Source: a virus. From it: DNA of 64,000 nucleotides. Made by a program: the position numbers and the translations under genes. Below the pieces are notes generated by a model. It searched no databases and was not told the DNA's origin. It was given only the letters and a program-made list of their open reading frames with translations. Below are positions 1,775 through 62,910 of this stretch, one piece after another (the first letter of the stretch is position 1; each line of letters starts with the position of its first letter). The stretch is from the IMG/VR virus record IMGVR_UViG_3300042359_000621; one strand, 5' to 3'.

Positions 1775-3232
1775 ATGCTGAAATCAAAACCAAGTTCTTT
1801 GTATCGGGTTGACGAAGATGAAGTAGCAGTGGGAAGTGGTGGGGGAGGAACTGCACCAACCGAAGCCCAAATGAAGCTATTTATTGCCCAAACTTTGTCA
1901 ATGAACTTCGCCTATAACGCCCCAGTTGTTGTGCTTAAATTTGATGTTGCCGAGAATGGGAATATTACCGGATTATTTAAAGATGCGGCACGTCCACGGA
2001 TGTTTTCCTTTACCTTAGACGGGGAGTCCGTAACTTATAAGCCTTACAAACCTGGTAAAATGGACAGCTTGGAGTCAGATGAGGATGTCCAAGAATGGGA
2101 GGCATTTTCAGAAGGGTACGGGTTCCGCGTTGATGCGGGAGTAGGGGGCAAAAAAAAGCCTCAATGTGTTAAGCCCACCGCTTACAATTGTGGGAGTGCC
2201 TGTATTAATGTGATGAAGGACTGTAAGACTAACGCCAAAGATGCAGTTTCTAAGGATAGGCTTAAAAAGCTGAAAGGTGTGGCGATGTCTTATTACAAGG
2301 AATTTGAGAAACTTGATAAGACAGAAAGAGGCAGTGACAAACAGAAGGGATTTGGCGACAAAGCAAATCAAGCTAGTCGGAAAAGACTTGAATTGATGGA
2401 GCAATCCAAAAGCAAAAAGGGGGTAAAGTCGGACGAACCCCAGATCAAGCCCAAGGCAGAAAGTAAAAAGCCTTCTAGTCAAAAATCATCAACACAGAAA
2501 ACGGTAGAACCCGAAGTTAAAACCAAGCCAAACGTAGAACCTAAAAAGACGGAATCCAAGCCAAAGTCCAAAGCCAATCCCTTTTATAGTGACGAACCAA
2601 TTAAGGATTATGAGACTTTCAAGAAGGAAATCCCTAAAGAATTAGCCAGGCTTGATTTTGAATACAATCATGGAGGGGTGATTCCTATATCGCAAGTGAG
2701 AGAGGATTTAAAAGGGCGAGTTAATGAAAAGGATTTTGATGAATGGATGAAGCAGTCAATGTATGATGACGATAAAGATACTATTCGACTGATATCAAGT
2801 AACCCAGAAAATAGACCAGATCCAAAAGGGATAAAATCTCCTATGGGAGGAGTGTACGATCACATTTCTTTTAGAGATGAAGAGGCAGCGAAAAAAGCAA
2901 AAACAGAAATAAAGCGGAAGCCGGGTCAAATTACGGATCAAAAAGAGTTTGAAAAAATAGCTAATGAGGCATTTGATAAAATCAGCAAGGCAAAGGGAGG
3001 GGAAGATCTTATAGAGATATACAAAATTCGCCAGGAATTAGGGGATAAAGTGAGTCGAGGTGATTTCAATAACCTATTTAAAAAGATGACAGAATGGGGA
3101 GGGGATTTTCAGGCTGTTGGAGGATCTTTGTCTACCCTAGCAGAAAACGATATAGGTATTAAAGATTCTATTCCCGATGAACTGAATGGGCATGGAACAG
3201 TTAAAACTTATGTAAAACGGTCGAAAGAGTAA
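1775..3232 (+). CDS. modular virion-associated protein, paralog 1 (shared N-domain + 4-Cys motif + Lys-rich linker + unknown C-terminal domain)
   Basis: The N-terminal ~130 aa (AQMKLFIAQTLS..FAYNAPV..RPRMFSF..YKPY) is shared with ORFs 3315 and 8145. It carries the motif KKPQCVKPTAYNCGSACINVMKDCK. Confidence 0.6.
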   Translation: MLKSKPSSLYRVDEDEVAVGSGGGGTAPTEAQMKLFIAQTLSMNFAYNAPVVVLKFDVAENGNITGLFKDAARPRMFSFTLDGESVTYKPYKPGKMDSLESDEDVQEWEAFSEGYGFRVDAGVGGKKKPQCVKPTAYNCGSACINVMKDCKTNAKDAVSKDRLKKLKGVAMSYYKEFEKLDKTERGSDKQKGFGDKANQASRKRLELMEQSKSKKGVKSDEPQIKPKAESKKPSSQKSSTQKTVEPEVKTKPNVEPKKTESKPKSKANPFYSDEPIKDYETFKKEIPKELARLDFEYNHGGVIPISQVREDLKGRVNEKDFDEWMKQSMYDDDKDTIRLISSNPENRPDPKGIKSPMGGVYDHISFRDEEAAKKAKTEIKRKPGQITDQKEFEKIANEAFDKISKAKGGEDLIEIYKIRQELGDKVSRGDFNNLFKKMTEWGGDFQAVGGSLSTLAENDIGIKDSIPDELNGHGTVKTYVKRSKE

Positions 3233-3314: not shown

Positions 3315-4721
3315 ATGAGTATAGAGACTAAATCATCACCAACAAAAGCACAAATGCAAGCAGCGATCGCCCAGACTCTTGCTCTTCCTTTTGCCTATAA
3401 CTCCCCAGTGGATGTGATGGACTTTAAGGTAGATGGCACGGGTAAAATATCAGGGCGATTCAAGGATTCTGCCCGTCCGAGGGTGTTTGATTTTGAGTTA
3501 GATGGAAATACCGTCAACTTCAAACCTTACGCCCCAGGACGCATGGATTCGGGCGATGCAGTGGAACAATGGGAGGAGTTCTCTAGTGGCTACTCCTATC
3601 GGGTAGATGCGGGGATAGGAGGTAATAAGAAGCCACAGTGCGTGAAGCCAACAGCTTACAATTGTGGGAAAGCCTGTATTAACATCATGAAAAGCTGCAA
3701 GATTAAAACTGATGATCCCACAATAAAAGATAGGCTTAAAAAGCTAGAGGGAATTGGGAAAAATTATGCAAAAACGACTAAATCAACTAAACCCCAAAAG
3801 ACATCAGAATCAGTTAAAATAGCTAAAGTAGATCCCATAATTGAGGTAGAAAAGCCAACAGAAAAACCAGTAGAAAAACCAGTAGAAAAACAGGCTCAAG
3901 AAAAAACAAAACCCCTTTCTAATGCACAAATAAATGCCCAAACAATAGAAAAACTAGCAAAAAAAGCGGGAGTTGATATTTCTGAATTAGAAGAAACTGC
4001 AAAAAAAGCAGGGGCAACTGAAGCTCAATTATTGACATTAAAAAATGCTGTTGCTAAATATCAAAAAACCAAGGGTATAGTGTCTGGAAGTCAGATTAAA
4101 ACTACAAGGTCAGAAGAAGAAGGTTTGACAGGAGACGGGTCACACGAAGGGATGCCCAGAAATGCCCAGGAGTATTATAATCTTGCTACTAAAAACGGGA
4201 AGCAAATAACATTAAAAGAAGCTCAAGATACTGTTGAGGCTATTGAAGACTGGGCGGGAAGTGGGTACGAAGAAATAAGAAAAGATCAAAAAGCAGGACA
4301 ACTTAATGAACGGGCGACACTTATTGACAACTATATTAAAAATTTAACCCCATACAAAGGGGAAGTTTACAGAGGGATAACTTTTGACAACAAAAAAGAG
4401 ATGGATGATTGGTTAAAGGGTGACAAGGATGGATTGTTAGACAATCAAAACGCCCACGCATCCTGGAGTTCTGAACTTGAAGTTGCTAAAGATTTTGCAT
4501 CAGTAGAAGATGATCTAGATAGAGTGGGTGTTGTAATTAAGTCGGTCAATAACAAGTCAGGTGTGTCTATTTCCAATCTAAGTGATTTTGGGAAGACGGA
4601 ATCCGAGGTTATTGTTCCAAAGGATGCTAAACACAAAGTTAAAAGCGTTAGAGAAGAAGGGGGTGTTGTGTATGTAGAAGTAGAGGAAGTTGACCCCCCC
4701 CCTAATAGAAAAACCCGCTAA
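3315..4721 (+). CDS. modular protein, paralog 2, with a C-terminal mono-ADP-ribosyltransferase-like domain
   Basis: It has the shared N-domain and the Cys motif. The C-terminus carries an R-S-E triad pattern: GEVYRG, HASWSS and TESEVIVP. Confidence 0.7.
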   Translation: MSIETKSSPTKAQMQAAIAQTLALPFAYNSPVDVMDFKVDGTGKISGRFKDSARPRVFDFELDGNTVNFKPYAPGRMDSGDAVEQWEEFSSGYSYRVDAGIGGNKKPQCVKPTAYNCGKACINIMKSCKIKTDDPTIKDRLKKLEGIGKNYAKTTKSTKPQKTSESVKIAKVDPIIEVEKPTEKPVEKPVEKQAQEKTKPLSNAQINAQTIEKLAKKAGVDISELEETAKKAGATEAQLLTLKNAVAKYQKTKGIVSGSQIKTTRSEEEGLTGDGSHEGMPRNAQEYYNLATKNGKQITLKEAQDTVEAIEDWAGSGYEEIRKDQKAGQLNERATLIDNYIKNLTPYKGEVYRGITFDNKKEMDDWLKGDKDGLLDNQNAHASWSSELEVAKDFASVEDDLDRVGVVIKSVNNKSGVSISNLSDFGKTESEVIVPKDAKHKVKSVREEGGVVYVEVEEVDPPPNRKTR

Positions 4722-5639: not shown

Positions 5640-6725
5640 ATGAAGAAGCCCCAGTGCGAAAAGCCAACATCTTACAATTGCGGAAATGCCTGTATCAATG
5701 TCTCAAAAAAATGCGGTCAGTCTCCATCTGATTCGTTTGGGCGACAAAGGCTACAAAAGTTAAGGGAGTTGGCGGTTTTTTACTCAAAAAGCAAGTCCAA
5801 AAAATTAGAGAAAAGTAAAGAATCAACCAACAAACTGATTACTACTATTGAAAGTAAAAGGAGTAAAGAAGCCAAAGAATTAAATCAAGATAGGAAGGTG
5901 ATTAATGAAGATCGTCGTAGGGCAAGGTTAAAAGTAGAAGCAAAAGCCAAGAGAGAGCAGTTATTAAAATTATCTGAAGAATTTGAAGGTAAGTCTAAAA
6001 CAAAAGGAGCCACTGCGAATGTAATAACAGAATCATTTCCTAATGCCAAGCTCTGGGAGATACATAATGGTTACAAACAACAGATTAGTAAAGTTGCCAA
6101 AAGCAATCCATTGAGTGCAAAAGAAATGACTCTAAAAGCGAACAAGAAGCTTGAAGTCATAAAAAAAGAAAGTACCGATTTTTTAACTCAATCCAGGAAA
6201 TTAATAGAGGTAGACTCCCCAACCAAAATTAACGCTTCAATAAGCTCCCCCTCACACAAGGAAGGAGTTGAAGCATTTTCTCGAATGGTTTCTATTCCCA
6301 ATCTAAAAGACTCAATCAATATCGTTGATGCCCCTCCAGGAGCCCAAGGGCGGAGTTATTACGGCTTGGGGAGCAATAACGTATATATGGGTGTTGAGTC
6401 TCCTAGTACAGTGGTTCATGAGATGAGTCACTGGCTAGAAGAAAAAGTTCCAAGTATTAGGCAGGAGGTTGTGGACTTTTATAAAAAACGAACCGACGGA
6501 GAAGACTTGGTTAAACTTCGAGATGTTACAGGGAACCCTGCTTACGGAGAAGAAGAGGAGACGAGGACAGATAAATGGCTGCATCCCTATATGGGCAAAG
6601 AGTATGAAAATGCGTCTGAAATTCTGTCAATGGGGATGGAATTAATGTACGAAAACCCTGCATATCTAGCCAAGAATGACCCCGAAATGTTCGACTTTAT
6701 TTATAGTGTTGTGAGGAGAGGATGA
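5640..6725 (+). CDS. 4-Cys-motif protein with a C-terminal HExxH metallopeptidase-like domain
   Basis: It starts directly with MKKPQCEKPTSYNCGNACINVSKKC. It has VVHEMSHWLEE (HExxH). The C-terminus is paralogous to ORF 6722. Confidence 0.65.
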   Translation: MKKPQCEKPTSYNCGNACINVSKKCGQSPSDSFGRQRLQKLRELAVFYSKSKSKKLEKSKESTNKLITTIESKRSKEAKELNQDRKVINEDRRRARLKVEAKAKREQLLKLSEEFEGKSKTKGATANVITESFPNAKLWEIHNGYKQQISKVAKSNPLSAKEMTLKANKKLEVIKKESTDFLTQSRKLIEVDSPTKINASISSPSHKEGVEAFSRMVSIPNLKDSINIVDAPPGAQGRSYYGLGSNNVYMGVESPSTVVHEMSHWLEEKVPSIRQEVVDFYKKRTDGEDLVKLRDVTGNPAYGEEEETRTDKWLHPYMGKEYENASEILSMGMELMYENPAYLAKNDPEMFDFIYSVVRRG

Positions 6726-7861
6726 TTAAATACAGAGAAGACAAGAGGGAAAAGAAAGCTCAATGCGTGAAGACTACTTCCTATAATTGCGGTCTATCTT
6801 GCATTAATGTTAAGAAAAATTGCAGGATAGTCCCGAATGATTCAAGGTCAAAAGATAGGCTTGAAAAGCTGAAAACGATGGGGATTGATTACGCTAAAAT
6901 TAGACCCTCAAAGTCTAAAGTTAAGCCGACACCAACCCCTATTCCGGTCATTCCCGCGCCAGTGATATCCGCGCCAGTCGTAATGCCAGAACCCGAAGTT
7001 AAAGAGACTCCAGAGCAAAGGAAAGCGAGGTTACAAATAGAATCAAGAGTTGTTCGGCAACGACTCGTGGGGATGTATGATGATCTTGAGCATGAAGAGA
7101 AAAGAAATCCAATCAAAGCCAATCAAAATGCCATAATAGCAATTAACGAAGAAAACCCCAAAAAGTTTTTAACTAGCAGGATAAAATTCTCCAATTCAAG
7201 AGCGAAGGATTATATTAAAACAAATCCAGAAAAAGCTCAGACATATGTGGATGCTGCCAAAATCGACCTAGAACCTGCACTAGCTAAAGTTAACGATCTT
7301 TTGGGTGAAGCCAGAAAATTAGTTGAAGTAAAGAATCCGTCATCATTTAATATAAAACAAAAAGGGGATAATATAATCTTTTACAAACACTTGTTAGATA
7401 AAGGAATTGACGCTTTTCAGAGGTTGGTCGATGTACCGAAATTGAGAAGTCCTGTCTCCATCGTAGTAACAGAACCATTGGGAAGCAGAAGCTCTTATTC
7501 TGACGCTGCAAAGAAAATCACACTAGGAACTGATGACCCGTCTGCCATTGTCCATGAGTTAGCGCATTGGTTGGATTTGTCTGACAATGGGGTCAAAAAA
7601 GAAGTTTTAGAATTTTACAATAAAAGAACGGAGGGAGAAAAAACGGTAAAGTTAAATGATGTTAGCAAAAACCCATACAGTAATGATGAAGTAACTAAAG
7701 TTGATAAGTGGTTAAATCTTTATATGGGAAAAGTTTATCCTGACAAGTCAACGGAAATCCTCTCAATGGGTTTAGAATTAATGTACAAGAACCCAGTATA
7801 TCTAGCAAAAAAAGACCCAGAAATGTTTGACTTTATTTACTCAGTAGTTAGGAGAGGTTAA
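6722..7861 (+). CDS. 4-Cys-motif protein with a C-terminal HExxH metallopeptidase-like domain (paralog)
   Basis: It has KKAQCVKTTSYNCGLSCINVKKNC, IVHELAHWLD, and a C-terminal tail almost identical to the other paralog (EILSMG.ELMY.NP.YLAK.DPEMFDFIYSVVRRG). Confidence 0.65.
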   Translation: MIKYREDKREKKAQCVKTTSYNCGLSCINVKKNCRIVPNDSRSKDRLEKLKTMGIDYAKIRPSKSKVKPTPTPIPVIPAPVISAPVVMPEPEVKETPEQRKARLQIESRVVRQRLVGMYDDLEHEEKRNPIKANQNAIIAINEENPKKFLTSRIKFSNSRAKDYIKTNPEKAQTYVDAAKIDLEPALAKVNDLLGEARKLVEVKNPSSFNIKQKGDNIIFYKHLLDKGIDAFQRLVDVPKLRSPVSIVVTEPLGSRSSYSDAAKKITLGTDDPSAIVHELAHWLDLSDNGVKKEVLEFYNKRTEGEKTVKLNDVSKNPYSNDEVTKVDKWLNLYMGKVYPDKSTEILSMGLELMYKNPVYLAKKDPEMFDFIYSVVRRG

Positions 7862-8144: not shown

Positions 8145-9500
8145 ATGAAGTTCAATCCAAATGCTACGGTTTCCGAGGCTCAAATGAAGTTAGCGATCGC
8201 TCAAACGTTATCGCTCCCATTTGCCTATAATTCTCCCGTGATGGTGTTGGATTTTGATTTAGGGGATAGTAACGGCGACAAAATAACAGGGCGGTTTAAG
8301 GACGCTTTCCGACCCCGCGTGTTTAGTTTTGAGATAACCAGGAAGTCAGTTGTCTATAAACCCTTCGTGGCTCGAACTGATAGCACGGGTTTGAATGTTG
8401 AGGTATGGGAAGATTTCTCGTCGGGTTATTCCTACCGATCAGGTTATTCCTACCGTGTTGATGCAGGGGGAGCAAGAAGGGAGAAAGCCCGGTGCGTAAA
8501 GCCTACGTCCTACAATTGTGGGAGTGTTTGCATCAATATCAAGAAAAGTTGCAGAGCTAATGCTGACGATGACTTTTCGGAGGAACGGATTGATAAGTTG
8601 CTCAAGTTAAAAAAACTGTATTTAGATGAACTGTACAAAATACAGCATGAGGAGCAAAAAGAAAGAGAATCTTATCTTCTTAAAGAAAATAAGGAGGTTA
8701 CTCTTGCGCTCATGGGTGCAAGAGAAAGGCAAAGAGAGCCAGAGAAACAAAAAGAGCTAGAGAAACAAAGACAGCTAGAAAAACAAAAAGAGCTGGAGAA
8801 ACAAAAAGAACTAGAGAAACAAAAACAGCTAGAAAAACAGCTAGAAAAACAAAAACAGCAGCAATCCCCTGGGCAAAGAGTCGGAAAATTAATGCCTTTT
8901 ATTGCATCCGTGAAAGAGATAGAGAAAACGGCAGAAGAATGGATTGATAAATCTAGTAAGTACGTTGCTACTGCGGGGGAAGCATTGAAGCAGTCCCCGT
9001 ACGGTAAAATTATAAAGTATGGCAATAAGGAGGTGATTGAGCGAGATGTTCTGGAGAAAAAAAGAGATTTAGTTGATGACTCAAATGCTGTGGCGGCGGG
9101 TCTAGCTTGGGCAGTAGAACTAGAGCCAGGATTACAAGATGCGTTTTTTTTAAAGGATGAATCAGGGAAATCTCAGGGGTTTTTCCTTACAGGAAACGAT
9201 AAATCTAAAGAATCTATGTATATAGAATATTTAGGTACTAATCCATCGAATATAATAACTAATACAAAAGGAGTGGGGAAGCAAATTATGTACCACGCTA
9301 TTCAAGAGAGTATAAAAAGAGGGTTTAATGGGAAGATAAAGCTAGAGGCGTTAGCATCTGCGGAACCTTTTTATGAGTCAGTTGGGTTTAAGAAACGCAT
9401 TGAAAAAAGTGCTAAATATGGATATGAACTTGAGTATTTTCATCTGTCGGAAAAATCAGCTAAGGCATTTGTCAAGGAATATGAGAAAAAACTAAAATAG
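8145..9500 (+). CDS. modular protein, paralog 3 (N-domain + 4-Cys motif + EKQ coiled-coil repeat + GNAT domain)
   Basis: It has the shared N-domain and EKARCVKPTSYNCGSVCINIKKSC. An 18-bp tandem (ELEKQK)n repeat lies at about 8741-8860. The C-terminal GNAT is about 85-90 percent identical in DNA to 5008-5385. Confidence 0.7.
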   Translation: MKFNPNATVSEAQMKLAIAQTLSLPFAYNSPVMVLDFDLGDSNGDKITGRFKDAFRPRVFSFEITRKSVVYKPFVARTDSTGLNVEVWEDFSSGYSYRSGYSYRVDAGGARREKARCVKPTSYNCGSVCINIKKSCRANADDDFSEERIDKLLKLKKLYLDELYKIQHEEQKERESYLLKENKEVTLALMGARERQREPEKQKELEKQRQLEKQKELEKQKELEKQKQLEKQLEKQKQQQSPGQRVGKLMPFIASVKEIEKTAEEWIDKSSKYVATAGEALKQSPYGKIIKYGNKEVIERDVLEKKRDLVDDSNAVAAGLAWAVELEPGLQDAFFLKDESGKSQGFFLTGNDKSKESMYIEYLGTNPSNIITNTKGVGKQIMYHAIQESIKRGFNGKIKLEALASAEPFYESVGFKKRIEKSAKYGYELEYFHLSEKSAKAFVKEYEKKLK

Positions 9501-17953: not shown

Positions 17954-19627
17954 ATGTCTAATTTTAGCGATAATGTGCGAACAAAGGAGTTTAAGCTCAT
18001 TCTATCCTCGGAACAAGAGCGAACCCTAGAAGATTGGATGCTAGTCTGTAAGTGGGTTTGGAATCGTTCACTGGGATTGATAGAGGAATTTAACGAGTGG
18101 AACCCCTACGATAGAATATCAAAGTCTAACGTCCCCGCTACTCCCCTGCAACGATATGATCGCAAGCTCAAGCAATGGGTACGAATTGAGATCCCAGATT
18201 GGAAGATGGGGATTGAACGAGTTGAGAAGAAAAGGGGATTCATCCATCCCGTTGCTATTGATGAGAATAGTCCGGTTATTGACTCACTAGATTCTAAAAA
18301 ATCAGTGCTATACGGATTTCTAAAAATGTTTGGACATCAACACCACAAAGATCGGATCGTGACTTATTTAATTAGAGGTGAGGAACGAAAAGTCAATTTC
18401 ACCGACTGCCCTGCAAAATTTATCCAAGGGGTAGCGCATGAACTCTCGAAGGCTTGGGAGGGATTTCTGGCGGGTCGCCATAGTCGTCCCCGATTCAAAA
18501 CAGCCAAAGATAAGGTGATGACTTTGATCCACTATAACGCCAGGGATCTAGGGGTTAAGGATGGTAAAATTAATATTCCTAAGTTGGGTTATATTGAAGT
18601 AATTGGGCTTGATAAGCGGTGGTATGGTTGCGATTTTAACCCGATGAAAATTTGCAAAAAAGCGTCGGGGTGGTATATACAATTAACTGCGTCCGTCCCT
18701 GTCAAACAAGCCAAGAAGACAGGGTTATGTTGTGGAATTGACCCCGGACATCAGTTTGTTATGGCATTGGATAATGGTCACACTATTGAGGCTGCACAAC
18801 CATTGAAACGTGGGTTAAAACGTTTAAGAAAAATGCAGCAACAATTATCTCGCAAGTATCGAATGAACGGGGGGAAGACTAAGAACTGGGAGAAACTTAA
18901 CAATAAGATTGCTAAACTTCACGAAAAGATCGCCCGTCACCGTCGATCTTTTAACCATTGGCATTCGACTAATTTAATTAATTGGTTTGATGTGATTTTT
19001 GTAGAAGATTATAAACCCGCCAATGTTTACCGAAAAGCTAAAGCTAAGGCAAAACTAGATACAGAGGGGGCTCCAATGGTAGCTGCAAATGGTACGGCTA
19101 TCTATGAGAAGAACAATCAGAAACGCAAGCGGGGAAGTAATAGAACAGGAAATGATGTGGCTATCGGTCAGGCTATTGATCTATTAGAAACCAAGGGAAA
19201 GGAACACGGAAAGTTAGTAATTCGGGTCGATAATTGGGGGACTACTTTATGTTGTGCAAAGTGTGGACACCAAGAGAAGAAAAAACTATCACAACGAACT
19301 CACAAATGCTCTAATTGTGGCTATACTGTGGCTCGTGATGTTAACTCAGGACAGAATATTAAACTGAAAGGTTTGGCTCAAATGGCAATCAATCAAGGTG
19401 TGGAGTTATCCGATAATTTCTGGTATAAATTCTTGATTGATAAAAATTCGGCAACCCCTAGCGGTTCTAAGAAGGCGACCAAGAAAAAGCCTAAAAAGTC
19501 AGACACCGTAATCATTCCAGATGATTTGTTTAAAAATGGGGTTCACGAATTTTTGATCGGTGAAACTGCCAAAACTCGTGCTATAATAAATGAAATGAGC
19601 TTAGGTAATTTCGATAGAAACGCCTGA
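17954..19627 (+). CDS. compact TnpB-like type V CRISPR effector candidate (Cas12-like, 557 aa)
   Basis: TnpB-type layout with an N-terminus KEFKLILSSEQERTLEDWMLVCKWVWNRSL, then RPRFKTAKD and IPKLGYIEV. RuvC-I is GIDPG (D263, 18740-18742). RuvC-II is IFVEDY (E351, 19004-19006). Zn ribbon is CAKCG..CSNCG. RuvC-III is ARDVNSGQNI (D462, 19337-19339). Its stop lies 19 nt before the first CRISPR repeat. Confidence 0.8.
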   Translation: MSNFSDNVRTKEFKLILSSEQERTLEDWMLVCKWVWNRSLGLIEEFNEWNPYDRISKSNVPATPLQRYDRKLKQWVRIEIPDWKMGIERVEKKRGFIHPVAIDENSPVIDSLDSKKSVLYGFLKMFGHQHHKDRIVTYLIRGEERKVNFTDCPAKFIQGVAHELSKAWEGFLAGRHSRPRFKTAKDKVMTLIHYNARDLGVKDGKINIPKLGYIEVIGLDKRWYGCDFNPMKICKKASGWYIQLTASVPVKQAKKTGLCCGIDPGHQFVMALDNGHTIEAAQPLKRGLKRLRKMQQQLSRKYRMNGGKTKNWEKLNNKIAKLHEKIARHRRSFNHWHSTNLINWFDVIFVEDYKPANVYRKAKAKAKLDTEGAPMVAANGTAIYEKNNQKRKRGSNRTGNDVAIGQAIDLLETKGKEHGKLVIRVDNWGTTLCCAKCGHQEKKKLSQRTHKCSNCGYTVARDVNSGQNIKLKGLAQMAINQGVELSDNFWYKFLIDKNSATPSGSKKATKKKPKKSDTVIIPDDLFKNGVHEFLIGETAKTRAIINEMSLGNFDRNA

Positions 19628-19646: not shown

Positions 19647-20817
19647 CTCGCAATAGGTGATTATCTGGTTTAAGGATTGAAACCTCCCTCCTGGGGTGTG
19701 TAGGATTGGTATTAATCCGACTCGCAATAGGTGATTATCTGGTTTAAGGATTGAAACTTATTGAATCCTGTGCGATCGCCACACTTTCGGGCTTTGATCT
19801 CGCAATAGGTGATTATCTGGTTTAAGGATTGAAACAGAAGATAATTTGAGTCCCCCCTTTACTTTTGAATTGATCTCGCAATAGGTGATTATCTGGTTTA
19901 AGGATTGAAACACAACGGCTCCCATATTGAGTTTCAAATACTTTTCCCTCGCAATAGGTGATTATCTGGTTTAAGGATTGAAACGCGACTGTTCAACACC
20001 GGAATTAAATATAATTCCCGCTCGCAATAGGTGATTATCTGGTTTAAGGATTGAAACTTTCCCATAACTTATCCGGCGGTTGCTGTTTAGAGAACTCGCA
20101 ATAGGTGATTATCTGGTTTAAGGATTGAAACTCAAAACCCATACACAGAGGGAGTGCCGGGTAAGTCGCTCGCAATAGGTGATTGCCTGTTTTAAGGATT
20201 GAAACAACGGGTGGGAATCCATTTTTATTAATGATTTAATCAAGCTCGCAATAGGTGATTATCTGGTTTAAGGATTGAAACCAGAAAATCAGATTGATTG
20301 TATCATAATTGACCCGTTAGATTTCTCGCAATAGGTGATTGCCTGTTTTAAGAATTGAAACATCCATGTTGAATAGTTGGATTGCTTGACAACAATACTC
20401 GCAATAGGTGATTGCCTGTTTTAAGAATTGAAACTTTAACCCTTCTACAGCATCACTGGATGATATTAAGCCTCGCAATAGGTGATTGCCTGTTTTAAGA
20501 ATTGAAACTATATCAGCGATATGGCCGGGCTTTATGGGTATTGCTTGGAGCACTCGCAATAGGTGATTGCCTGTTTTAAGGATTGAAACATATCGAGATT
20601 AATTCATTTGAAAATACTCCCATTGCTGCTCGCAATAGGTGATTGCCTGTTTTAAGGATTGAAACGATTGAATTTGAGCTACCATGTCATTAAGTCCTTT
20701 AACTATTTCTCGCAATAGGTGATTACCTGTTTTAAGGATTGAAACGATTGGAGTCGGTTGGGAAGCCTTGCAAACGTTACCTCGCAATAGGTGATTGCCT
20801 GTTTTAAGGATTGAAAC
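19647..20817 (+). CRISPR. CRISPR array, 16 x 37-bp repeats and 15 spacers
   Basis: The repeat is CTCGCAATAGGTGATTATCTGGTTTAAGGATTGAAAC in repeats 1-7 and 9. The variant ..GATTGCCTGTTTTAAG(G/A)ATTGAAAC occurs in repeats 8 and 10-16. Spacer lengths are 37, 41, 39, 36, 36, 37, 37, 39, 43, 36, 37, 44, 39, 43 and 35 nt, and all spacers are unique. Confidence 0.95.
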
Positions 20818-23530: not shown

Positions 23531-24040
23531 TTACGCAATAACAACACTTTAAAGTTAACATAGTTGAAAACATTGCTACAACTTAAAATATGAGTAAACC
23601 TAAAATTACTGAGACTGATATCAGCAAATTGACTCCCGATCCGAATAACGCACGGAAAAGAACACCATTGTCGGCAAGCGTTATTAGGAAATCGTTAGAA
23701 CAGTTTGGGGCAGCTCGAAGTATTGTTGTCGATGAAAATGACGTGATTCGGGCGGGTAATGGAACCTTTGAGGAGGCGGGTCAATTAGGGATTGAGAAGG
23801 TTGTCACCATTGAGGTAGATGGTAATACTATTGTTGCAGTCAAAAGGAGAGGATTGACTGAGGAACAATGGAAAAAGTATGCGATCGCTGATAATACGGC
23901 TTCTGATTTTAGTACATGGGATTATGAAATATTGGAGGAGTTGGCTCAAGAGGTAGATTATTCTGAGTTTTTCCCTGATGATAAATTGAATGAATTGTTA
24001 GAGTCATTGGGTAAAGGTGAAAGTTTTGGCAATACTGAAC
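23531..24040 (+). repeat. direct repeat copy 1 (promoter/5'UTR + ParB-like N-domain coding)
   Basis: The 60-nt upstream region is near-identical to 27429-27490, and the coding similarity continues for about 450 bp. Confidence 0.7.
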
Positions 24041-24153
24041 CCAAGGAAGATGGAAACCCAGAATCACCAGAAGATTTTAAGGAATATGGAGAAGATATCG
24101 AAACCGAACACTGTTGCCCTAAATGTGGTTACAAATGGTCTGGAGGTAAATAA
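23590..24153 (+). CDS. ParB-like nuclease domain protein with a C-terminal zinc ribbon
   Basis: The N-terminal ~150 aa is paralogous to ORF 27488 (LTPDPNNARKRT...IV.DEN..I.AGNG..EEAGQLGI). The C-terminus has HCCPKCGYKWSG. Confidence 0.65.
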   Translation: MSKPKITETDISKLTPDPNNARKRTPLSASVIRKSLEQFGAARSIVVDENDVIRAGNGTFEEAGQLGIEKVVTIEVDGNTIVAVKRRGLTEEQWKKYAIADNTASDFSTWDYEILEELAQEVDYSEFFPDDKLNELLESLGKGESFGNTEPKEDGNPESPEDFKEYGEDIETEHCCPKCGYKWSGGK

Positions 24154-25227
24154 ATGAATACCAAACCCATTTATCGTGTTCCTCTAATGAAAGAGATAGA
24201 AGAAATCCCCTGGAACGGGTTTAATGTTGTTTCTACCTTTAGTGGTACTGGTGGCTCATGTCTTGGCTATCGGATGGCTGGTTATCGGGTGTTGTGGGCT
24301 AATGAATTTATTCCTGCGGCTCAGGATTCTTATAAAGCAAATCACCCGAATTCCATCCTTGATAGGAGAGATATTCGGTTGGTACAGCCAGAAGACATTT
24401 TAAGAGCAACTGGCTTAGGTGTTGGCGAAATTGACATATTCGATGGTTCGCCCCCGTGTGCAGCTTTTTCTAAAGCAGGTAAACGTGATAAAGGATGGGG
24501 TGTCGTAAAGAAATATTCAGATACCACGCAACGGGTTGACGATTTGTTTTTTGAATACACCAGACTAATCCAAGGAACAAAGCCTAAAGTATTTGTTGCT
24601 GAAAATGTAGCAGGTTTAGTTACAGGTGTTGCTAAAGGTTATTTTTTAGAGATACTGAGAACTTTAAAAGCCTGTGGCTACAAAGTTAAGTGTAAAGTTT
24701 TAGATGCTCAGTGGTTAGGTGTTCCACAGGCCAGGCAACGGACTATTTTTATAGGGATTAGAGACGATATTAACTTGGATATCGTCTACCCTATACCATG
24801 CAAAAAACAATACACTGTTAGGGATGCAATATCAAATCTAGGGATTGACAATAGTTTGTTTTATAAACTTCCTAAAGGTAAAATGTTAGATGTTTATATG
24901 AACACAAGAGATGACGAGAAAGGTAGATTTGAAGATGCACATTACAGATTGTACGGCAAGGAGTCTTATTTTAATTTTGCGAGAGCTTGTTGGGATTTAC
25001 CGTCTAGGACTATTCTACAAAGTAGCCAGGGTATATGTCACCCAGAGATACCCAGAACATTTACTATTTCAGAATTAAAGCGTATCTGCGCTTTCCCAGA
25101 TGACTTTATATTATTAGGTTCATTTGCTAAACAATGGGAACGACTGGGGCGTGCTGTTCCCCCTGTTATGATGTCACATATAGCCAAAACAATTCAATTA
25201 GAAATACTAGAAAAATGTGTGGATTAG
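24154..25227 (+). CDS. DNA cytosine-C5 methyltransferase-fold enzyme with an atypical motif X (GRAVPP)
   Basis: Motif I is FSGTGGSCLGY, motif IV is GSPPCAAFS, motif VI is AENVAGL, and motif VIII is QARQRTIFIG. Motif X is LGRAVPPVM, with Arg where the canonical enzyme has Asn. Confidence 0.85.
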   Translation: MNTKPIYRVPLMKEIEEIPWNGFNVVSTFSGTGGSCLGYRMAGYRVLWANEFIPAAQDSYKANHPNSILDRRDIRLVQPEDILRATGLGVGEIDIFDGSPPCAAFSKAGKRDKGWGVVKKYSDTTQRVDDLFFEYTRLIQGTKPKVFVAENVAGLVTGVAKGYFLEILRTLKACGYKVKCKVLDAQWLGVPQARQRTIFIGIRDDINLDIVYPIPCKKQYTVRDAISNLGIDNSLFYKLPKGKMLDVYMNTRDDEKGRFEDAHYRLYGKESYFNFARACWDLPSRTILQSSQGICHPEIPRTFTISELKRICAFPDDFILLGSFAKQWERLGRAVPPVMMSHIAKTIQLEILEKCVD

Positions 25228-26570
25228 CGGGTACATATAAATCCAGTGTAGATGTAGAGTCTATGCTTCTTAAAATAATACATAGGGGGCGAGATGACCA
25301 AGGCATTCACAAGCATGGCGATACTGTTCATGGTCACGTTAGGCTGTCTTTACTTGATTTAAGTTCGGCATCTAAACAGCCTTTTCTCTTGAATAATTCC
25401 ACTCTTTCATTTAATGGTGAGATATGGAATTATAGAGATATAAAAAAGAAGTTACAAGACGATGGTTGTAGATTTAACACAACAGGCGACACCGAAGTAT
25501 TGAGTCAATTTTTAGATATTTATGGTGTTTCGCAGTTAAATCAACTAGAGGGAATGTTTGCTTTTGCGTGGAGTAAGGAGCAGGAACATTGGCTTGTGAG
25601 AGACCGTTTTGGTGAAATACCTTTGTATCTGGCAAAAACGAATAAAGGGTATATCTGGGCATCTGAAAGAAAAGCATTTCCTAGTGGTGTTATACCTGTT
25701 TCCGTTCCTCCGGGCTATGCTTTTAATCTAGTAAAAGGCGAGTGGTTTCAATGGTATAAACTACCAGGAACAACACCACAGCAAAATATATTAGATTGCT
25801 TGAGTAGGGGTGTAGAACAAAGATTAAATGCCGATGCTCCGGTCTGCTGTCTTATATCGGGCGGATTAGATAGCGTCTTAGTTCTGCAAATAGCAAAGTC
25901 TATAAATAAAAACATCGTAGCTTTCACGGCAAAAATGCGTAACGATTCAAATGATTTACTAGCAGCCAGAAGGGTATGCAGTGAGTACGAAATTCAATTA
26001 ATAGAAGTGCCAGTATCTATTGATTTGGATTCCTTAACTAACGCAGCTAAAGTAATAGAAATTAACAGCAAAGCTCAAATAGAGATAGCTTCACTGTGCC
26101 TACCACTGGCACAAAGGATAAGAGCAGAAGGTTTTAAGTCTTGCTTATCTGGTGAAGCTGCCGATGAGCTTTTTGGCGGTTATGGTAACTTCTGTATTCA
26201 GGCATCCAAAAGTACGAATACAGAAGTTATATCTCTTAGAAAAAGTCAATTAGCAAAAATGTCAAGGGGTAATTTTGTTAGGTGCAATAAAGCATTTATG
26301 TATGGTGGCGTTGAGTGTAGATTGCCATTTATGGATGTTAATTTAGTTGAATATGCCATAAACCTAAACCTCTCGCAATCACCAGCAAATAAGAAACTAC
26401 TGAAATCCGCCGCAGCTAAACTACTGCCTAAGTGGGTGATATCCAGAGTTAAGGATACCTTTCAAGGGGGTAGTGGAGTCTCTACCTGGACAGAGGAAAA
26501 TATAGCATCTCCAATAAAATTTTACAACAATGAACTAAAGAAAACTTTTGGATACTTACCCAAGGACTAA
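25215..26570 (+). CDS. asparagine synthetase B-like glutamine amidotransferase / ATP-PPase
   Basis: It starts MCGLAG (Ntn Cys2 of class II GATase). It has the PP-loop CCLISGGLDS. It overlaps the MTase stop by 13 nt. Confidence 0.8.
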   Translation: MCGLAGTYKSSVDVESMLLKIIHRGRDDQGIHKHGDTVHGHVRLSLLDLSSASKQPFLLNNSTLSFNGEIWNYRDIKKKLQDDGCRFNTTGDTEVLSQFLDIYGVSQLNQLEGMFAFAWSKEQEHWLVRDRFGEIPLYLAKTNKGYIWASERKAFPSGVIPVSVPPGYAFNLVKGEWFQWYKLPGTTPQQNILDCLSRGVEQRLNADAPVCCLISGGLDSVLVLQIAKSINKNIVAFTAKMRNDSNDLLAARRVCSEYEIQLIEVPVSIDLDSLTNAAKVIEINSKAQIEIASLCLPLAQRIRAEGFKSCLSGEAADELFGGYGNFCIQASKSTNTEVISLRKSQLAKMSRGNFVRCNKAFMYGGVECRLPFMDVNLVEYAINLNLSQSPANKKLLKSAAAKLLPKWVISRVKDTFQGGSGVSTWTEENIASPIKFYNNELKKTFGYLPKD

Positions 26571-26571
26571 T

Positions 26572-27276
26572 ATGAATAATTATCACGTTCCATCTAAAGA
26601 CAAATGGGAGTTTGACGAATCGGTAACAGATATTTTTGATGATATGTTAGCCCGTTCGATTCCCCAATACGAGGTAATGAGAAAAGCTGTTTCAAGTATT
26701 GCTTGTGAGTTTATGCAGTCTTCTGGTTGTGTAGTCGATATAGGCTGTTCAAGAGGTGAGCAAATAGCTCGTTTAATTCAATCCTATGGCGCGGGTTGTC
26801 ACTATCACGGAATAGAAATTAGTGAGCCGATGATTGGTGCAGCTAAAGACAAGTTCAAAAACCATCATTGTGTCAAATTACATGAATTGGATTTGAGAAA
26901 AGATTGGTTAACCATTGAAAACATATCTGTCACTTTGTCTGTTTTAACCTTGCAATTTATTCCGATTGAATACAGGTTAGGACTACTTAAAAAAATCTAT
27001 GATTCAACTCGAAAAGGCGGGTGTTTTATCTTGGTTGAAAAAGTTATTGGTGGGTCTGCTGATATTGACTCACTATTAACAAATCAATACTACAATTTAA
27101 AACACCAGAATGGTTACTCTGTCTATGAGATAGAAAGAAAGCGTTTAAGTCTTGAGGGTGTTTTAGTTCCTGTAACAGCTAATTGGAATGAAGAAATGCT
27201 AAAACTATCTGGTTTCACTGAAGTTGATTGTTTTTGGCGATGGATGAATTTTGTTGGATGGGTTGCTATCAAATAA
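26572..27276 (+). CDS. cmoA: CmoA-like carboxy-S-adenosylmethionine synthase homolog
   Basis: KWEFDESVTDIFDDMLARSIPQY, VVDIGCSRG, LTLQFIP, GGCFILVEK, NGYSVYEIERKRLSLEGVL and NFVGWVAIK are colinear with my recollection of E. coli CmoA. This is the first ATG, and a TTG alternative exists at 26548. Confidence 0.75.
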   Translation: MNNYHVPSKDKWEFDESVTDIFDDMLARSIPQYEVMRKAVSSIACEFMQSSGCVVDIGCSRGEQIARLIQSYGAGCHYHGIEISEPMIGAAKDKFKNHHCVKLHELDLRKDWLTIENISVTLSVLTLQFIPIEYRLGLLKKIYDSTRKGGCFILVEKVIGGSADIDSLLTNQYYNLKHQNGYSVYEIERKRLSLEGVLVPVTANWNEEMLKLSGFTEVDCFWRWMNFVGWVAIK

Positions 27277-27297: not shown

Positions 27298-27359
27298 ATT
27301 AATCCGGCGGTTGCCGGATTAATTATCAAAAAGCCTAGGGGTTGAATCCTAGGCTTTTT
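27298..27359 (+). terminator. tandem intrinsic terminators ending the modification operon
   Basis: Hairpin attaatccggc-ggtt-gccggattaat lies at 27298-27323. Hairpin aaaaagcctagg-ggttgaat-cctaggcttttt lies at 27328-27359. Confidence 0.6.
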
Positions 27360-27428
27360 GATAGTAATGAGTCTTAATTCTTTCGTATCATTTTAATCAC
27401 AACACCCGCGCTGGCTAGATATGCGGGG

Positions 27429-27938
27429 TTACGCAATAACAACACTTTAAAGTTAACATAGTTGAAAACATTGCTACAACTTAAAATATGAGTAAGCCCA
27501 AAATTACTGAGACTGATATCTCTAAACTAACTCCCGATCCTAACAATGCCCGCAAAAGAACGCCCTTATCAGCAAGCGTTATTAGGAAATCAATTGAACA
27601 ATTCGGGATGACTCGGAGTATTGTCCTTGATGAGAATGGGGTGATTTTAGCGGGTAACGGGGCGTTTGAGGAGGCGGGTCAATTAGGTATTGAAAGGGTG
27701 ATCGTCGTCGAGACAACAGGTAATGAGATAGTGGCGGTGAAACGGACTAATCTTACTGCTGAACAGAAAACTCAATATGCGATCGCTGATAATACGGCAT
27801 CTGATTTCTCGACTTGGGACTTTGATATTTTGAGTGAGTTAACTCAGGAAGTTGATCTATCTGAGTTTTTCCCTGATGATAAATTAAATGAATTATTGGA
27901 ACAGTTGGGTAAAGGTGAAAGTTTTGGAGTTACTGAAC
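27429..27938 (+). repeat. direct repeat copy 2
   Basis: See 23531-24040. Confidence 0.7.
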
Positions 27939-29086
27939 AAGGGGAAGAAAACGAGGAAGAAATTGCTGAACTTCTGGATAAGGTAGATGAGATTGAGTCA
28001 CGGGTTAAGTTGGGTGAAATATGGCAGTTAGGACGACATAAAATATGCGCGGGTGATTCTACTATCGAGAGGAATGTTAGGGCTTTGTTGGGGGATAGCA
28101 AGGCGGTATTAGTCCATGCAGATCCACCTTATGGAATGGGTAAGGAAAAAGATGGAGTTCTGAATGATAATCTCTACCGAGAAAAGTTAGATGATTTTCA
28201 GATGAAATGGATCAGGGCTTGTCGTGGGAATGTAGAAGATAATGGCAGTTTTTATATTTGGGGTAATGCTGAGGATTTGTGGCGGTTATGGTATTCGGGC
28301 GGGTTGAAAGATAGTGAGAGGTTGACTTTTAGGAATGAGATTGTTTGGGATAAAGCAAATGCGTCAGGATTGTATGATGGGAACGGCATAGGATCATCTA
28401 TAGGAAGACAGTTTGCTAACATCTCAGAACGCTGTTTATTTTATATGGTTGGTGAGCAGGGATTTAATAATAATGCTGATAATTATTGGGAAGGATGGGA
28501 ACCAATCAGGCTATACCTTGATAATGAGCGCAAGAAATCAGGGTTAACAACGGCACAATGTAACAAGATTTGTGGCAAACAGAATATGACTCAATCTGCT
28601 TTTACAAAAGGTGGTTTTAGACTGATTTTAGAGGAGGATTATACTGCTTTACGGAGCGCAGCAAAAGGCGAAGCCTTTAAACGGGAATATGACGAACTTA
28701 AAAAGGAATATGACAAACTTAAAAAGGAATATGACAAACTTAAAAAGGAATATTATGCCACCCGTGCCTATTTCAATAATACCCACGAAAACATGACCGA
28801 TGTATGGGAATATCCCAGAGTTCAGGGTGAGGAGCGATGGGGTCACGCCACACCCAAACCCGTTGATATGATTGCCAGAATTTATAAAAGTAGTTCACCC
28901 GATGATGGGATTATTTATTCACCATTTTTAGGGTCTGGGACGGATATTATTGCTGGTGAGAAATCAGGAGGCGATCGCACCGTCGCAGGATTCGAGTTAT
29001 CACCCGCATATTGTGAAATTATCTGTCAAAGATTTTCCAAACTAACAGGAATTGAGCCTAAACTAATCGGAAAATTGCCAGATTAA
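27488..29086 (+). CDS. ParB-like domain fused to an N6-adenine/N4-cytosine DNA methyltransferase
   Basis: It has a ParB-like N-domain, motif IV VHADPPYG, and a late FxGxG block SPFLGSGTD. This is a beta-class motif order. It also has 21-bp x3 tandem repeats encoding EYDKLKK. Confidence 0.85.
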   Translation: MSKPKITETDISKLTPDPNNARKRTPLSASVIRKSIEQFGMTRSIVLDENGVILAGNGAFEEAGQLGIERVIVVETTGNEIVAVKRTNLTAEQKTQYAIADNTASDFSTWDFDILSELTQEVDLSEFFPDDKLNELLEQLGKGESFGVTEQGEENEEEIAELLDKVDEIESRVKLGEIWQLGRHKICAGDSTIERNVRALLGDSKAVLVHADPPYGMGKEKDGVLNDNLYREKLDDFQMKWIRACRGNVEDNGSFYIWGNAEDLWRLWYSGGLKDSERLTFRNEIVWDKANASGLYDGNGIGSSIGRQFANISERCLFYMVGEQGFNNNADNYWEGWEPIRLYLDNERKKSGLTTAQCNKICGKQNMTQSAFTKGGFRLILEEDYTALRSAAKGEAFKREYDELKKEYDKLKKEYDKLKKEYYATRAYFNNTHENMTDVWEYPRVQGEERWGHATPKPVDMIARIYKSSSPDDGIIYSPFLGSGTDIIAGEKSGGDRTVAGFELSPAYCEIICQRFSKLTGIEPKLIGKLPD

Positions 29087-62685: not shown

Positions 62686-62910
62686 ATGTCTAAAGTCTTT
62701 GTGATGGATACCGAAAAGCGTCCATTAAATCCAATCTCACCCGCAAAAGCTAGGATTCTTTTAACTCAAAAGAAAGCCGCAGTTTTTCGGCATCAACCTT
62801 TTACAATCATCCTAAAATATGCTGTCAAATCTTCAACTGAAGACTTGAGGCTAAAGATAGATCCTGGTTCTAAATTTACTGGCATTGCCTTGGTAAACGA
62901 CGACAGTTAA
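62686..62910 (+). pseudogene. truncated IscB-like (RRXRR-domain / RuvC-I) gene fragment
   Basis: MSKVFVMDTEKRPLNPISPAKARILLTQKKAAVFRHQPFTIILK...LKIDPGSKFTGIALV matches the IscB/RRXRR N-terminus through RuvC-I. It then hits a stop at 74 aa, and no HNH or RuvC-II/III follows. Confidence 0.55.

Follow-up and report, generated by a model that had tools for sequence, protein, structure and literature searches.

A predicted glutamine-using version of the CmoA-CmoX-CmoY DNA hypermodification pathway in a PaV-LD-like Planktothrix cyanophage

In the virus record IMGVR_UViG_3300042359_000621, four tightly packed genes on the plus strand (23590-27276) encode, in order, a small ParB-like protein, an enzyme with the fold of a cytosine C5-methyltransferase (MTase), a ligase resembling asparagine synthetase B (AsnB), and a homologue of CmoA. 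What would such a set of enzymes do for a phage? The 64,000 nucleotides analyzed here (the window) are related to Planktothrix phage PaV-LD, and we take their source to be a PaV-LD-like Planktothrix cyanophage. A preliminary description of this DNA had called the four genes coupled and had proposed that carboxy-SAM (Cx-SAM) is used to carboxymethylate cytosine in DNA at C5, followed by amidation. Rereading of the open reading frames (ORFs) and junctions showed tight packing, and all four ORFs lie where they had been placed. The TAA of the ParB-like gene abuts the ATG of the MTase gene without a gap (24151-24156), the amidotransferase ATG at 25215 lies inside the 3' end of the MTase gene in a 13-nt overlap with its stop (TAG, 25225-25227), and one base separates the amidotransferase TAA from the CmoA-like ATG (26572). 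An alternative, longer amidotransferase ORF runs from 25134; we placed the start at 25215 because this gives the Met-Cys-Gly that is required for an Ntn amidotransferase and seen in all homologues. The three enzyme family assignments were upheld by profile matches far beyond chance (PF00145; Asn_synthase, GATase_6, and GATase_7; TIGR00740). The features are collected in Table 1.

Table 1. Features of the cassette and its flanks in the window
Feature	Coordinates	Strand	Basis
Direct repeat, left copy, 510 bp	23531..24040	+	59-nt leader + ParB N-domain codons
Small ParB-like protein, 187 aa	23590..24153	+	PHROG 620 'ParB-like partition protein', E 4e-33
CmoX-type DNA cytosine C5-carboxymethyltransferase (predicted), 357 aa	24154..25227	+	PF00145, E 1e-55
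CmoY-type amide ligase (predicted), glutamine-hydrolysing kind, 451 aa	25215..26570	+	Pfam/NCBIfam matches, 1CT9 alignment, AF2 model
CmoA-type carboxy-SAM synthase (predicted), 234 aa	26572..27276	+	TIGR00740, PHROG 4752, PDB matches
Two adjacent stem-loops after CmoA stop	27300-27321 + 27322-27365	+	RNA fold
Direct repeat, right copy	27429..27938	+	Leader + N-terminal ParB domain of ParB-N6/N4 DNA methyltransferase gene
Neighbouring ParB-N6/N4 DNA methyltransferase gene	27488-29086	+	PF01555 N6_N4_Mtase 1.4e-28; PHROG 498 3.6e-80

The preliminary description implied that a natural pathway of this composition might be new, but one was described in December 2025, when Yang et al. (Nat Commun; PMC12783734) reported a DNA-camouflage pathway in Synechococcus phage S-B43, together with a crystal structure of its CmoX (8YF3). 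In that phage, the CmoA homologue SpCmoA makes Cx-SAM. SpCmoX is homologous to C5-MTases but carries Arg where motif X normally has Asn, and it forms 5-carboxymethylcytosine (5cxmC) in double-stranded DNA; the wild-type enzyme accepts Cx-SAM only, and its R350N mutant is dead. SpCmoY, an AsnB-like ligase, then joins an amine (glycine) to 5cxmC with ATP, and S-B43 virion DNA contains the amide. The window shares with S-B43 the three enzyme families in one operon and a cyanobacterial host, although the S-B43 order is CmoA-CmoY-CmoX. Streptomyces phage TurkishDelight, in contrast, has in gp122-125 the same order as the window (small ParB-like protein, CmoX, glutaminase-bearing ligase, CmoA), with identities of 56% for CmoX, 36% for the ligase, 22% for CmoA, and 27% for ParB. 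It differs in the phylum of its host and in having two ParB genes (gp121-125).

Whether the last gene encodes a CmoA-like protein or a generic class I MTase had been left to be checked. It matches TIGR00740 (CmoA) at an E value of 1.2e-46 over positions 13 to 239 of 239 (the nearest unrelated family reaches 1.5e-6), although its score of 159 bits is below the curated NCBIfam cutoff of 193. It also matches PHROG 4752 (E 2.7e-71) and, in the PDB, YecO (1IM8, 1.3e-30) and E. coli CmoA (4GEK, 7e-29). In E. coli CmoA, Arg199 binds the carboxylate (residue assignments for Arg199 and Glu164 from PMC3663124). Alignment equates R191 and E156 of the window protein with Arg199 and Glu164, and Y33, D56, G58, S60, D107, and F129 are also kept. 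The full-length profile match, the two equivalent residues, and the PDB matches speak for a CmoA-like protein, and from its homology to tested enzymes we infer that it is a Cx-SAM synthase. It is about 30% identical to S-B43 CmoA. At the Arg199 position, it keeps the Arg of bacterial CmoA, whereas S-B43 CmoA has Glu, with an Arg one helical turn later, and TurkishDelight CmoA has Ala and carries an Arg four positions further on.

The MTase-fold protein finds 8YF3 as its best PDB match (E 6.3e-68), about 40 orders of magnitude ahead of any ordinary C5-MTase (HaeIII MTase, 2.5e-29), and shares 43% identity with SpCmoX and 56% with TurkishDelight gp123. Its catalytic Cys102 lies within SPPC, ENV occupies positions 150 to 152, and R333 (GRAVPP) stands at the motif X Asn position, so that SPPC and the Cx-SAM-binding Arg are common to it and S-B43 CmoX. 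In the alignment, F29, E51, F52, D73, C102, and R333 correspond to SpCmoX F25, E47, F48, D69, C98, and R350, the six residues whose roles in cofactor binding and catalysis come from PMC12783734. A second C5-MTase in the window (60897-61928) is of the ordinary type and keeps the Asn (IGNAVPP); therefore, the Arg is specific to the cassette enzyme. Among the IMG/VR loci, SPPC and the Arg are present in every CmoX associated with the ligase. A tentative statement in the preliminary description that engineered C5-MTases can use Cx-SAM proved correct: in M.MpeI N374K, cited in PMC12783734, a basic residue at the motif X Asn lets the enzyme take Cx-SAM, as the Arg would in the window enzyme, which differs in being natural and in being followed by a predicted amidation step. 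Homology to a tested and crystallized enzyme thus supports assignment of this protein as a CmoX-type carboxymethyltransferase, and the retained CmoA Arg and Glu, the 8YF3 match with R333, and the published homologues together support the proposed transfer of carboxymethyl from Cx-SAM to C5 of cytosine. The recognition region of the window CmoX is unlike that of S-B43 CmoX and also unlike that of near-identical cassettes. Since it differs from that of S-B43, the GC specificity of the latter need not hold here.

The ligase matches Asn_synthase (8e-39), GATase_6 (7e-30), and GATase_7 (1e-28). Its N-terminal Ntn glutaminase domain is complete (Cys2, R43, N67-G68-E69, and D92), and its PP-loop synthetase domain carries SGGLDS at 215 to 220, SGE at 312 to 314, and an equivalent of AsnB Glu348. 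An AF2 model (pLDDT 94) superposes both domains on E. coli AsnB (1CT9) with a TM score of 0.90 and an rmsd of 2.6 Å, and a residue-by-residue alignment to 1CT9 matches AsnB Cys1, Arg49, Asn74, Glu76, Asp98, SGGLDS, and Glu348. The window ligase is about 100 residues shorter than AsnB and falls under both NCBIfam asparagine synthetase cutoffs (261.6 versus 267.1 and 239 versus 499). The AsnB TTIR segment (chain positions 321 to 324) is replaced by A287-Q288-I289-E290, with K286, Q288, and E290 invariant in the ligase family. From AsnB mutagenesis, we take TTIR to take part in aspartate activation, and its change to AQIE would fit a different carboxylate substrate, presumably a modified DNA base rather than the free aspartate of AsnB.

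Which amine this ligase would use is indicated by its glutaminase domain. The full-length homologues that were retrieved, at identities between 95% and 35%, keep the Cys, Arg, Asn-Gly-Glu, and Asp, a pattern that points to selection for glutamine hydrolysis; the PP-loop and the Glu348 equivalent are likewise intact in them. An AsnB-type PP-loop domain is also present in S-B43 CmoY, but this protein has 271 residues and the synthetase domain only (synthetase parts, about 21% identical), so the predicted amine is ammonia rather than glycine. The window ligase, 36% identical over its full length to TurkishDelight gp124 (UniProt A0A7T0Q3R0), belongs with the cluster of that protein and not with the S-B43 CmoY type. 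A0A7T0Q3R0 represents the second-largest ligase cluster, for which glutamine-derived ammonia was predicted and soluble protein was not obtained (PMC12783734). That prediction and the complete set of glutamine-dependent AsnB-type residues strengthen the proposed amidation, whose final step remains a prediction; the likely product is 5-carbamoylmethylcytosine. The same CmoA and CmoX chemistry could instead be followed by addition of glycine, another amino acid, or a polyamine, with the glutaminase domain vestigial or regulatory. The sole CmoY assayed, that of S-B43, uses glycine (PMC12783734), and AsnB superfamily relatives that do not use glutamine (beta-lactam synthetase, carbapenam synthetase, and lasso-peptide cyclases) are among the structural and HMM neighbors. 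Nevertheless, we consider another amine unlikely: nonamidating relatives lack the N-terminal Cys that the homologues of the window ligase keep with their other glutaminase residues, the glycine-using S-B43 enzyme lacks the entire domain, and the closest fold is that of AsnB.

It is considerably less probable that the cassette holds an ordinary SAM-dependent 5mC MTase, with the CmoA- and AsnB-like proteins serving host tRNA cmo5U, SAM depletion as antidefense, or asparagine supply. The database names 'DNA (cytosine-5)-methyltransferase', 'tRNA (cmo5U34)-methyltransferase', and 'asparagine synthase' would fit such roles, and SAM consumption by CmoA is raised as a side benefit in the discussion of PMC12783734. 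Against them stand the Arg in every cassette enzyme where the phage's second C5-MTase has Asn, the strict Cx-SAM requirement of SpCmoX, and a ligase that scores below both asparagine synthetase cutoffs and has lost TTIR. The bacterial CmoA/CmoB pathway to tRNA cmo5U shares with the predicted one its cofactor, Cx-SAM from prephenate and SAM, but differs in its target; a tRNA target is not supported here, as a scan that covered the cassette, its immediate neighbors, and other larger ORFs of the window showed no CmoB homologue, and the transferase has a DNA C5-MTase fold. Furthermore, the three genes stay together in one tight operon in phages whose hosts are cyanobacteria, Streptomyces, or uncultured: CmoX and CmoA adjoin the ligase in 17 of the 18 IMG/VR loci that carry it, and independent metagenome contigs show the cassette order unchanged, with terminase adjacent. 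Least probable is a hydroxamate or other N-substituted amide made from a modified glutamine donor, as by the hydroxyamidotransferase TsnB9 (7YLZ). TsnB9 is a significant neighbor (N-domain sequence E 1.3e-19; fold E 3e-23), but AsnB matches the window ligase far more closely, and no N-hydroxylase or other donor-making gene lies in the cassette or its conserved neighborhood.

The first gene is a regular companion of the cassette and an accessory component; in 15 of the 18 related viral loci, a small ParB immediately precedes CmoX. The designation 'ParB-like/Zn-ribbon' stands in its first half (PHROG 620; no match in a Pfam profile search) and not in its second, since only one CPxCG knuckle is present, within the conserved tail at the C terminus, DIETEHCCPKCGYKWSGGK. 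The tail motif, D(I/V)ETE(H/Y)xCPxCGYxWSG, is kept despite 27 to 34% overall identity, including in TurkishDelight gp122, whose CPxCGYxWSG it shares. We would guess that this protein helps to recruit the enzymes to DNA.

Downstream of CmoA, RNA folding recovered the reported double terminator as two strong adjacent hairpins (minimum free energy, -44.3 kcal/mol; shuffled sequences, -20.4 ± 3.1; z = -7.8; none of 200 shuffles reached as stable a fold), the second a GC stem between an A-run and a U-run. A simple pattern scanner listed neither. The pair is likely to terminate transcription of the cassette. The cassette also lies between direct repeats that are 79% identical by self-BLAST. The 59-nt leader of the left copy is identical to 27429-27487, with exactly two copies in the window and none expected by chance. 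In a three-way alignment, the repeat copies were compared with PaV-LD, which is without the cassette; the module could be gained or lost through homologous recombination between the ParB-domain repeats.

Taken together, these genes probably form a CmoA-CmoX-CmoY DNA hypermodification module in its glutamine-using version, with ammonia as the amine. CmoA would turn SAM and host prephenate into Cx-SAM. CmoX would flip cytosine out of double-stranded DNA for attack of Cys102 on C6 and move the carboxymethyl group onto C5 to give 5cxmC, with Arg333 holding the cofactor carboxylate and excluding plain SAM and with sites set by the variable target recognition region (about residues 210 to 300). The CmoY synthetase domain would adenylate the 5cxmC carboxylate while its Cys2 glutaminase domain frees ammonia from glutamine, and attack of ammonia on the acyl-adenylate would give the primary amide, 5-carbamoylmethylcytosine. 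The cassette would then be a glutamine-using version of the published pathway, with a final product that is predicted rather than measured, and its likely purpose would be to shield the phage DNA from host restriction, as 5cxmC was shown to protect against HhaI.

The preliminary description proposed four translationally coupled genes followed by a double terminator. All four open reading frames (ORFs) were present, on the plus strand, at the coordinates listed in the table, and their junctions are compatible with translational coupling: the ATG of cmoX comes directly after the TAA of the small ParB-like gene, cmoX and cmoY overlap by 13 nt, and one base lies between the TAA of cmoY and the ATG of cmoA. 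RNA folding of the region after the CmoA stop codon gave -44.3 kcal/mol, compared with -20.4 +/- 3.1 in shuffled sequences (z = -7.8), confirming two neighboring hairpins, the second of which is a GC stem between an A run and a U run. A simple promoter/terminator pattern scan had returned no terminator; because of the intergenic RNA folding, that result was overruled and both hairpins were accepted as real. Matches to PF00145, Asn_synthase/GATase, and TIGR00740 bore out the families given to the C5-methyltransferase (MTase)-fold, amidotransferase, and CmoA genes.

Coordinates of the cassette and of other features of the window
Feature	Coordinates	Strand	Details
Five consecutive paralogous ORFs	1775-3232, 3315-4721, 5640-6725, 6722-7861, 8145-9500	+	PHROGs 16619 "minor head protein" and 33618
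TnpB/Cas12-like ORF	17954-19627	+	557 aa; Cas12f1-like_TNB 8e-15, OrfB_IS605 1e-11
CRISPR array	19647-20817	+	16 repeats of 37 nt; 15 unique spacers, 35-44 nt
Direct repeats	23531-24040, 27429-27938	+	79% identical overall; flank cassette
Small ParB-like ORF	23590-24153	+	187 aa; PHROG 620 "ParB-like partition protein," 4e-33
CmoX-type C5-MTase-fold ORF	24154-25227	+	357 aa; PF00145, E 1e-55
CmoY-type ligase ORF	25215-26570	+	451 aa; Met-Cys-Gly start; Asn_synthase and two class II glutamine amidotransferase domains
CmoA-type ORF	26572-27276	+	234 aa; CmoA equivalog TIGR00740, E 1.2e-46
Adjacent hairpins	27300-27321, 27322-27365	+	RNA folding downstream of last stop codon
ParB-N6/N4 methyltransferase	27488-29086		532 aa
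Second canonical C5 cytosine methyltransferase	60897-61928	+	PF00145, 1e-50; SPPC; IGNAVPP with Asn
HEARO RNA, IscB-associated	62435-62650	+	Rfam RF02033, 126.9 bits
ORF after HEARO RNA	62686-62910	+	74 aa

A recent paper (Yang et al., Nat Commun 17:281, December 2025, PMC12783734) describes a CmoA-CmoX-CmoY pathway in Synechococcus phage S-B43. In that phage, CmoA (SpCmoA) converts SAM and prephenate to carboxy-SAM (Cx-SAM); CmoX (SpCmoX), a C5-MTase homologue, makes 5-carboxymethylcytosine (5cxmC) in double-stranded DNA with Cx-SAM as its only cofactor; and CmoY (SpCmoY), an asparagine-synthetase-like ATP-dependent ligase, couples glycine to the 5cxmC carboxylate, the glycine amide being present in virion DNA (PMC12783734). 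In the SpCmoX crystal structure, 8YF3, Arg350 replaces the motif X Asn (Asn304 of M.HhaI) and holds the carboxylate of Cx-SAM, and the R350N variant is inactive. Candidate CmoX proteins are recognized there by SPPC plus R350, and ParB-domain neighbors are frequent. The second-largest ligase cluster (A0A7T0Q3R0) has a glutamine-hydrolyzing domain and is a predicted user of glutamine-derived ammonia; no member of it was obtained soluble. The same source reports that 5cxmC confers HhaI resistance and that an engineered C5-MTase, M.MpeI N374K, uses Cx-SAM, a point on which the preliminary description was correct (PMC12783734). The pathway is therefore already known and its glutamine-type variant already described bioinformatically. 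What goes beyond the portion of PMC12783734 available is the ParB tail motif, the exchange of the CmoX recognition region, and the existence of two CmoA types. In the literature searched, nothing later reported the amide base or followed up CmoX or CmoY.

The best solved-structure match of the window's CmoX was SpCmoX itself (8YF3, E 6.3e-68; 43% identity), followed by M.HaeIII (2.5e-29). Residues S99-P100-P101-C102 align with S95-C98 of SpCmoX, and R333, in ERLGRAVPP, aligns with SpCmoX R350 (ERVGRMVPP) and with the Asn of IGNAVP in M.HaeIII. F29, E51, F52, D73, C102, and R333 correspond to SpCmoX F25, E47, F48, D69, C98, and R350. The second C5-MTase of the window served as an internal control, as it combines SPPC with an ordinary, Asn-containing IGNAVPP; a standard 5mC enzyme is thus also encoded by this phage. 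With SPPC and the Arg both in place, the cassette enzyme fits the sequence definition of a CmoX and is predicted to transfer carboxymethyl groups.

For CmoA, the match to TIGR00740 covered positions 13 to 239 of 239, with the next unrelated family at 1.5e-6, and the closest solved relatives were Haemophilus influenzae YecO (~1e-30) and Escherichia coli CmoA (7e-29). The protein also matched PHROG 4752 (2.7e-71), a phage clade that we take to include the biochemically active SpCmoA. The scores did not reach the curated cutoffs (159.4 versus 193.3 bits for TIGR00740 and 112.8 versus 285 for PRK15451), and by the NCBIfam yardstick the window's CmoA therefore belongs to this divergent phage clade. 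In the alignment with E. coli CmoA, R191 and E156 occupy the positions of Arg199 and Glu164, and the SAM-binding residues Y39, D62, G64, S66, D117, and F137 of CmoA are likewise retained. Byrne et al. found that Arg199 forms a salt bridge with the cofactor carboxylate and sets CmoA apart from ordinary SAM enzymes, and that Glu164, like Arg199, is a conserved feature of CmoA proteins that ordinary SAM MTases do not share (PMC3663124). The view of this gene as CmoA-like rather than a generic MTase stands on the full-length family match and the retained Arg199 and Glu164, although its score stays below the curated cutoff. The compared cassettes fall into two CmoA types: the window's protein has its Arg at the Arg199 position, whereas those of S-B43 and of the Streptomyces phage TurkishDelight have it one helical turn later.

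The window's CmoY differs from that of S-B43, which has 271 aa and the synthetase domain only, in being a full two-domain protein. Its synthetase domain (PF00733, 8e-39) has SGGLDS and is encoded beside CmoX and CmoA, and its glutaminase domain matched GATase_6 (7e-30) and GATase_7 (1e-28). Cys2, R43, N67-G68-E69, and D92 align with Cys1, Arg49, Asn74-Glu76, and Asp98 of E. coli AsnB, and the AsnB PP-loop and Glu348 have their counterparts in SGGLDS and in the Glu of SGE. An AlphaFold model (pLDDT 94, pTM 0.91) superimposed on AsnB (1CT9) with a TM score of 0.90 and a root mean square deviation of 2.6 Å, both domains being arranged alike. However, AsnB TTIR (residues 321 to 324 of the 1CT9 chain), a segment involved, according to AsnB mutagenesis, in aspartate activation, is AQIE in CmoY, and K286, Q288, and E290 are invariant across the ligase family. 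CmoY also did not reach the AsnB and asn_synth_AEB equivalog cutoffs (261.6 versus 267.1 bits and 239.3 versus 499). The subcutoff scores and the lost TTIR segment rule out an ordinary asparagine synthetase; as judged from its residues, CmoY is an enzyme that resembles AsnB in its working yet is no asparagine synthetase. Over its full length, CmoY shares 36% identity with TurkishDelight gp124, which exact look-up identified as UniProt A0A7T0Q3R0, and we therefore grouped it with the glutamine-type cluster of PMC12783734.

Given close homology to tested enzymes and the diagnostic residues, CmoA would make Cx-SAM, and CmoX would then carboxymethylate C5 of cytosine by a covalent mechanism through Cys102, with R333 selecting the cofactor. 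CmoY would adenylate the new carboxylate, and ammonia channeled from the glutaminase site would attack it to give 5-carbamoylmethylcytosine. We infer this amidation step from the intact, conserved AsnB architecture and the prediction in PMC12783734. A tRNA target was rejected, as no CmoB homologue was seen among the ORFs scanned and the transferase has a DNA MTase fold. The pathway in the preliminary description, from Cx-SAM through 5cxmC to an amide, thus appears to hold almost point for point, its first two steps through tested homologues and its third as a prediction. By analogy with the HhaI resistance of 5cxmC, the most likely function of the cassette is protection against host nucleases. 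The first reading arrived independently at a pathway whose experimental proof dates only from December 2025; the agreement is a useful check on the reading method and no discovery.

The cassette recurs in other viruses. TurkishDelight carries small ParB, CmoX, ligase, and CmoA genes in the window's order (gp122-125). In 17 of 18 IMG/VR loci with a relative of the window ligase (35 to 95% identity), CmoX and CmoA adjoin the ligase gene, and in 15 a small ParB gene also lies directly upstream of CmoX. Every CmoX associated with those ligases has SPPC and GR(A/M/S/C)VPP, and the glutaminase and synthetase residues are kept in all full-length ligases retrieved. In further metagenome contigs, the same gene block adjoins a terminase gene. 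A large protein collection held more than two thousand relatives of the ligase at E <= 1e-30, and the best 120 of these all have both the amidotransferase and Asn_synthase domains.

The small ParB-like protein had no Pfam match and was found instead by PHROG 620. The cassette ParB proteins (window 24100-24153; compared loci L001 and L014-L018) share a C-terminal tail, D(I/V)ETE(H/Y)xCPxCGYxWSG, which persists across phages of different phyla: the cyanophage and Streptomyces phage proteins both have it, although their identity is otherwise 27%. By sequence comparison, the ParB domain of the neighboring methyltransferase fusion lacks this tail, and the available portion of PMC12783734 does not mention it. 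The earlier label of ParB-like/Zn-ribbon protein was correct in its first half; the tail holds a single zinc-knuckle-like CPxCG motif, not a full ribbon.

CmoX has a highly variable region. In ten IMG/VR loci (L004-L013), the ligase shares 94 to 95% identity with that of the window and CmoX is the same at both ends (100% identity), but across the target-recognition region, residues ~210 to 300 (window 24780-25050), identity to the window's CmoX is only 3 to 40%. At least four alleles differ in length, with variants of 333, 356, and 378 aa among them. This pattern looks like modular exchange of target specificity, and the modified motif therefore probably differs among close relatives. For the same reason, the GC specificity of S-B43 CmoX is not to be assumed for the window. 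Palindrome counts over the whole window did not identify a target motif for its CmoX and revealed strong depletion of GGCC alone, with 9 sites where ~119 were expected from trinucleotide frequencies (ratio, 0.08); ACGT, CCGG, GATC, and GCGC were mildly depleted (0.6 to 0.7). The scarcity of GGCC points less to protection by modification than to a long history of avoiding a host restriction enzyme that cuts this sequence.

Because its first 22 kb, including head, tail, and tape-measure genes, match the Planktothrix phage PaV-LD at 96% identity over about half the length, we regard the window as a PaV-LD-like cyanophage. The cassette is absent from PaV-LD, in which the ParB parts alone match. 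In the window, each of the two direct repeats consists of a leader, whose 59 nt before the ATG are identical in both copies, and an N-terminal ParB domain; copy 1 starts the small ParB gene and copy 2 the ParB-N6/N4 methyltransferase, which with CmoX and the second C5-MTase makes three DNA-modifying transferases in 64 kb. The only ParB-domain methyltransferase gene of PaV-LD is ORF098R; a three-way alignment showed the one PaV-LD copy to be a mosaic of both window repeats, as would be expected of cassette gain or loss via homologous recombination between ParB domains. The PaV-LD counterpart of the methyltransferase (70791-72074, locus L003) matches the window enzyme at the two ends only, namely, over the ParB domain plus ~50 residues and over the final 80 residues; the middle of the PaV-LD gene is shorter and unrelated.

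Several features lie outside the cassette. The TnpB/Cas12-like ORF, whose best PDB match was ISDra2 TnpB (6e-20), ends 20 nt before the CRISPR array (repeat CTCGCAATAGGTGATTnnCTGnTTTAAGrATTGAAAC), and the two together are possibly a miniature system, type V or TranC-like, carried by the phage. The pair occurs in four IMG/VR contigs (L028-L031), with the protein 97 to 99% identical, and PaV-LD retains only ~1.5 repeats. The repeat pattern had no exact match in 185,579 species-representative bacterial and archaeal genomes; borrowing from a host with a sequenced genome is therefore not evident. The HEARO RNA is followed by an ORF that by eye resembles the IscB N terminus (KIDPGSKFTGIAL) and then stops; together they may be a decayed IscB element. 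The five consecutive ORFs near the start of the window are, by their family matches, a tandem family of structural-protein paralogues.

PaV-LD and Planktothrix agardhii are a cultured pair of phage and host, and the window, from a close relative of the cassette-free PaV-LD, carries the glutamine-type ligase. The predicted base is therefore directly testable, since virion DNA of carriers and noncarriers can be compared by mass spectrometry and restriction sensitivity. The swapped recognition regions are naturally occurring variants with which the encoding of carboxymethyltransferase specificity could be mapped, knowledge that is relevant to sequencing and DNA-labeling uses of 5cxmC. We give an even chance to the joint proposal that CmoY forms 5-carbamoylmethylcytosine, that the cassette moves by ParB-repeat recombination with a swapped CmoX recognition region, and that the CPxCG ParB protein is a dedicated fourth subunit bringing the enzymes onto DNA. 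If this is true, near relatives among these phages would share one exotic base but have it at different motifs.
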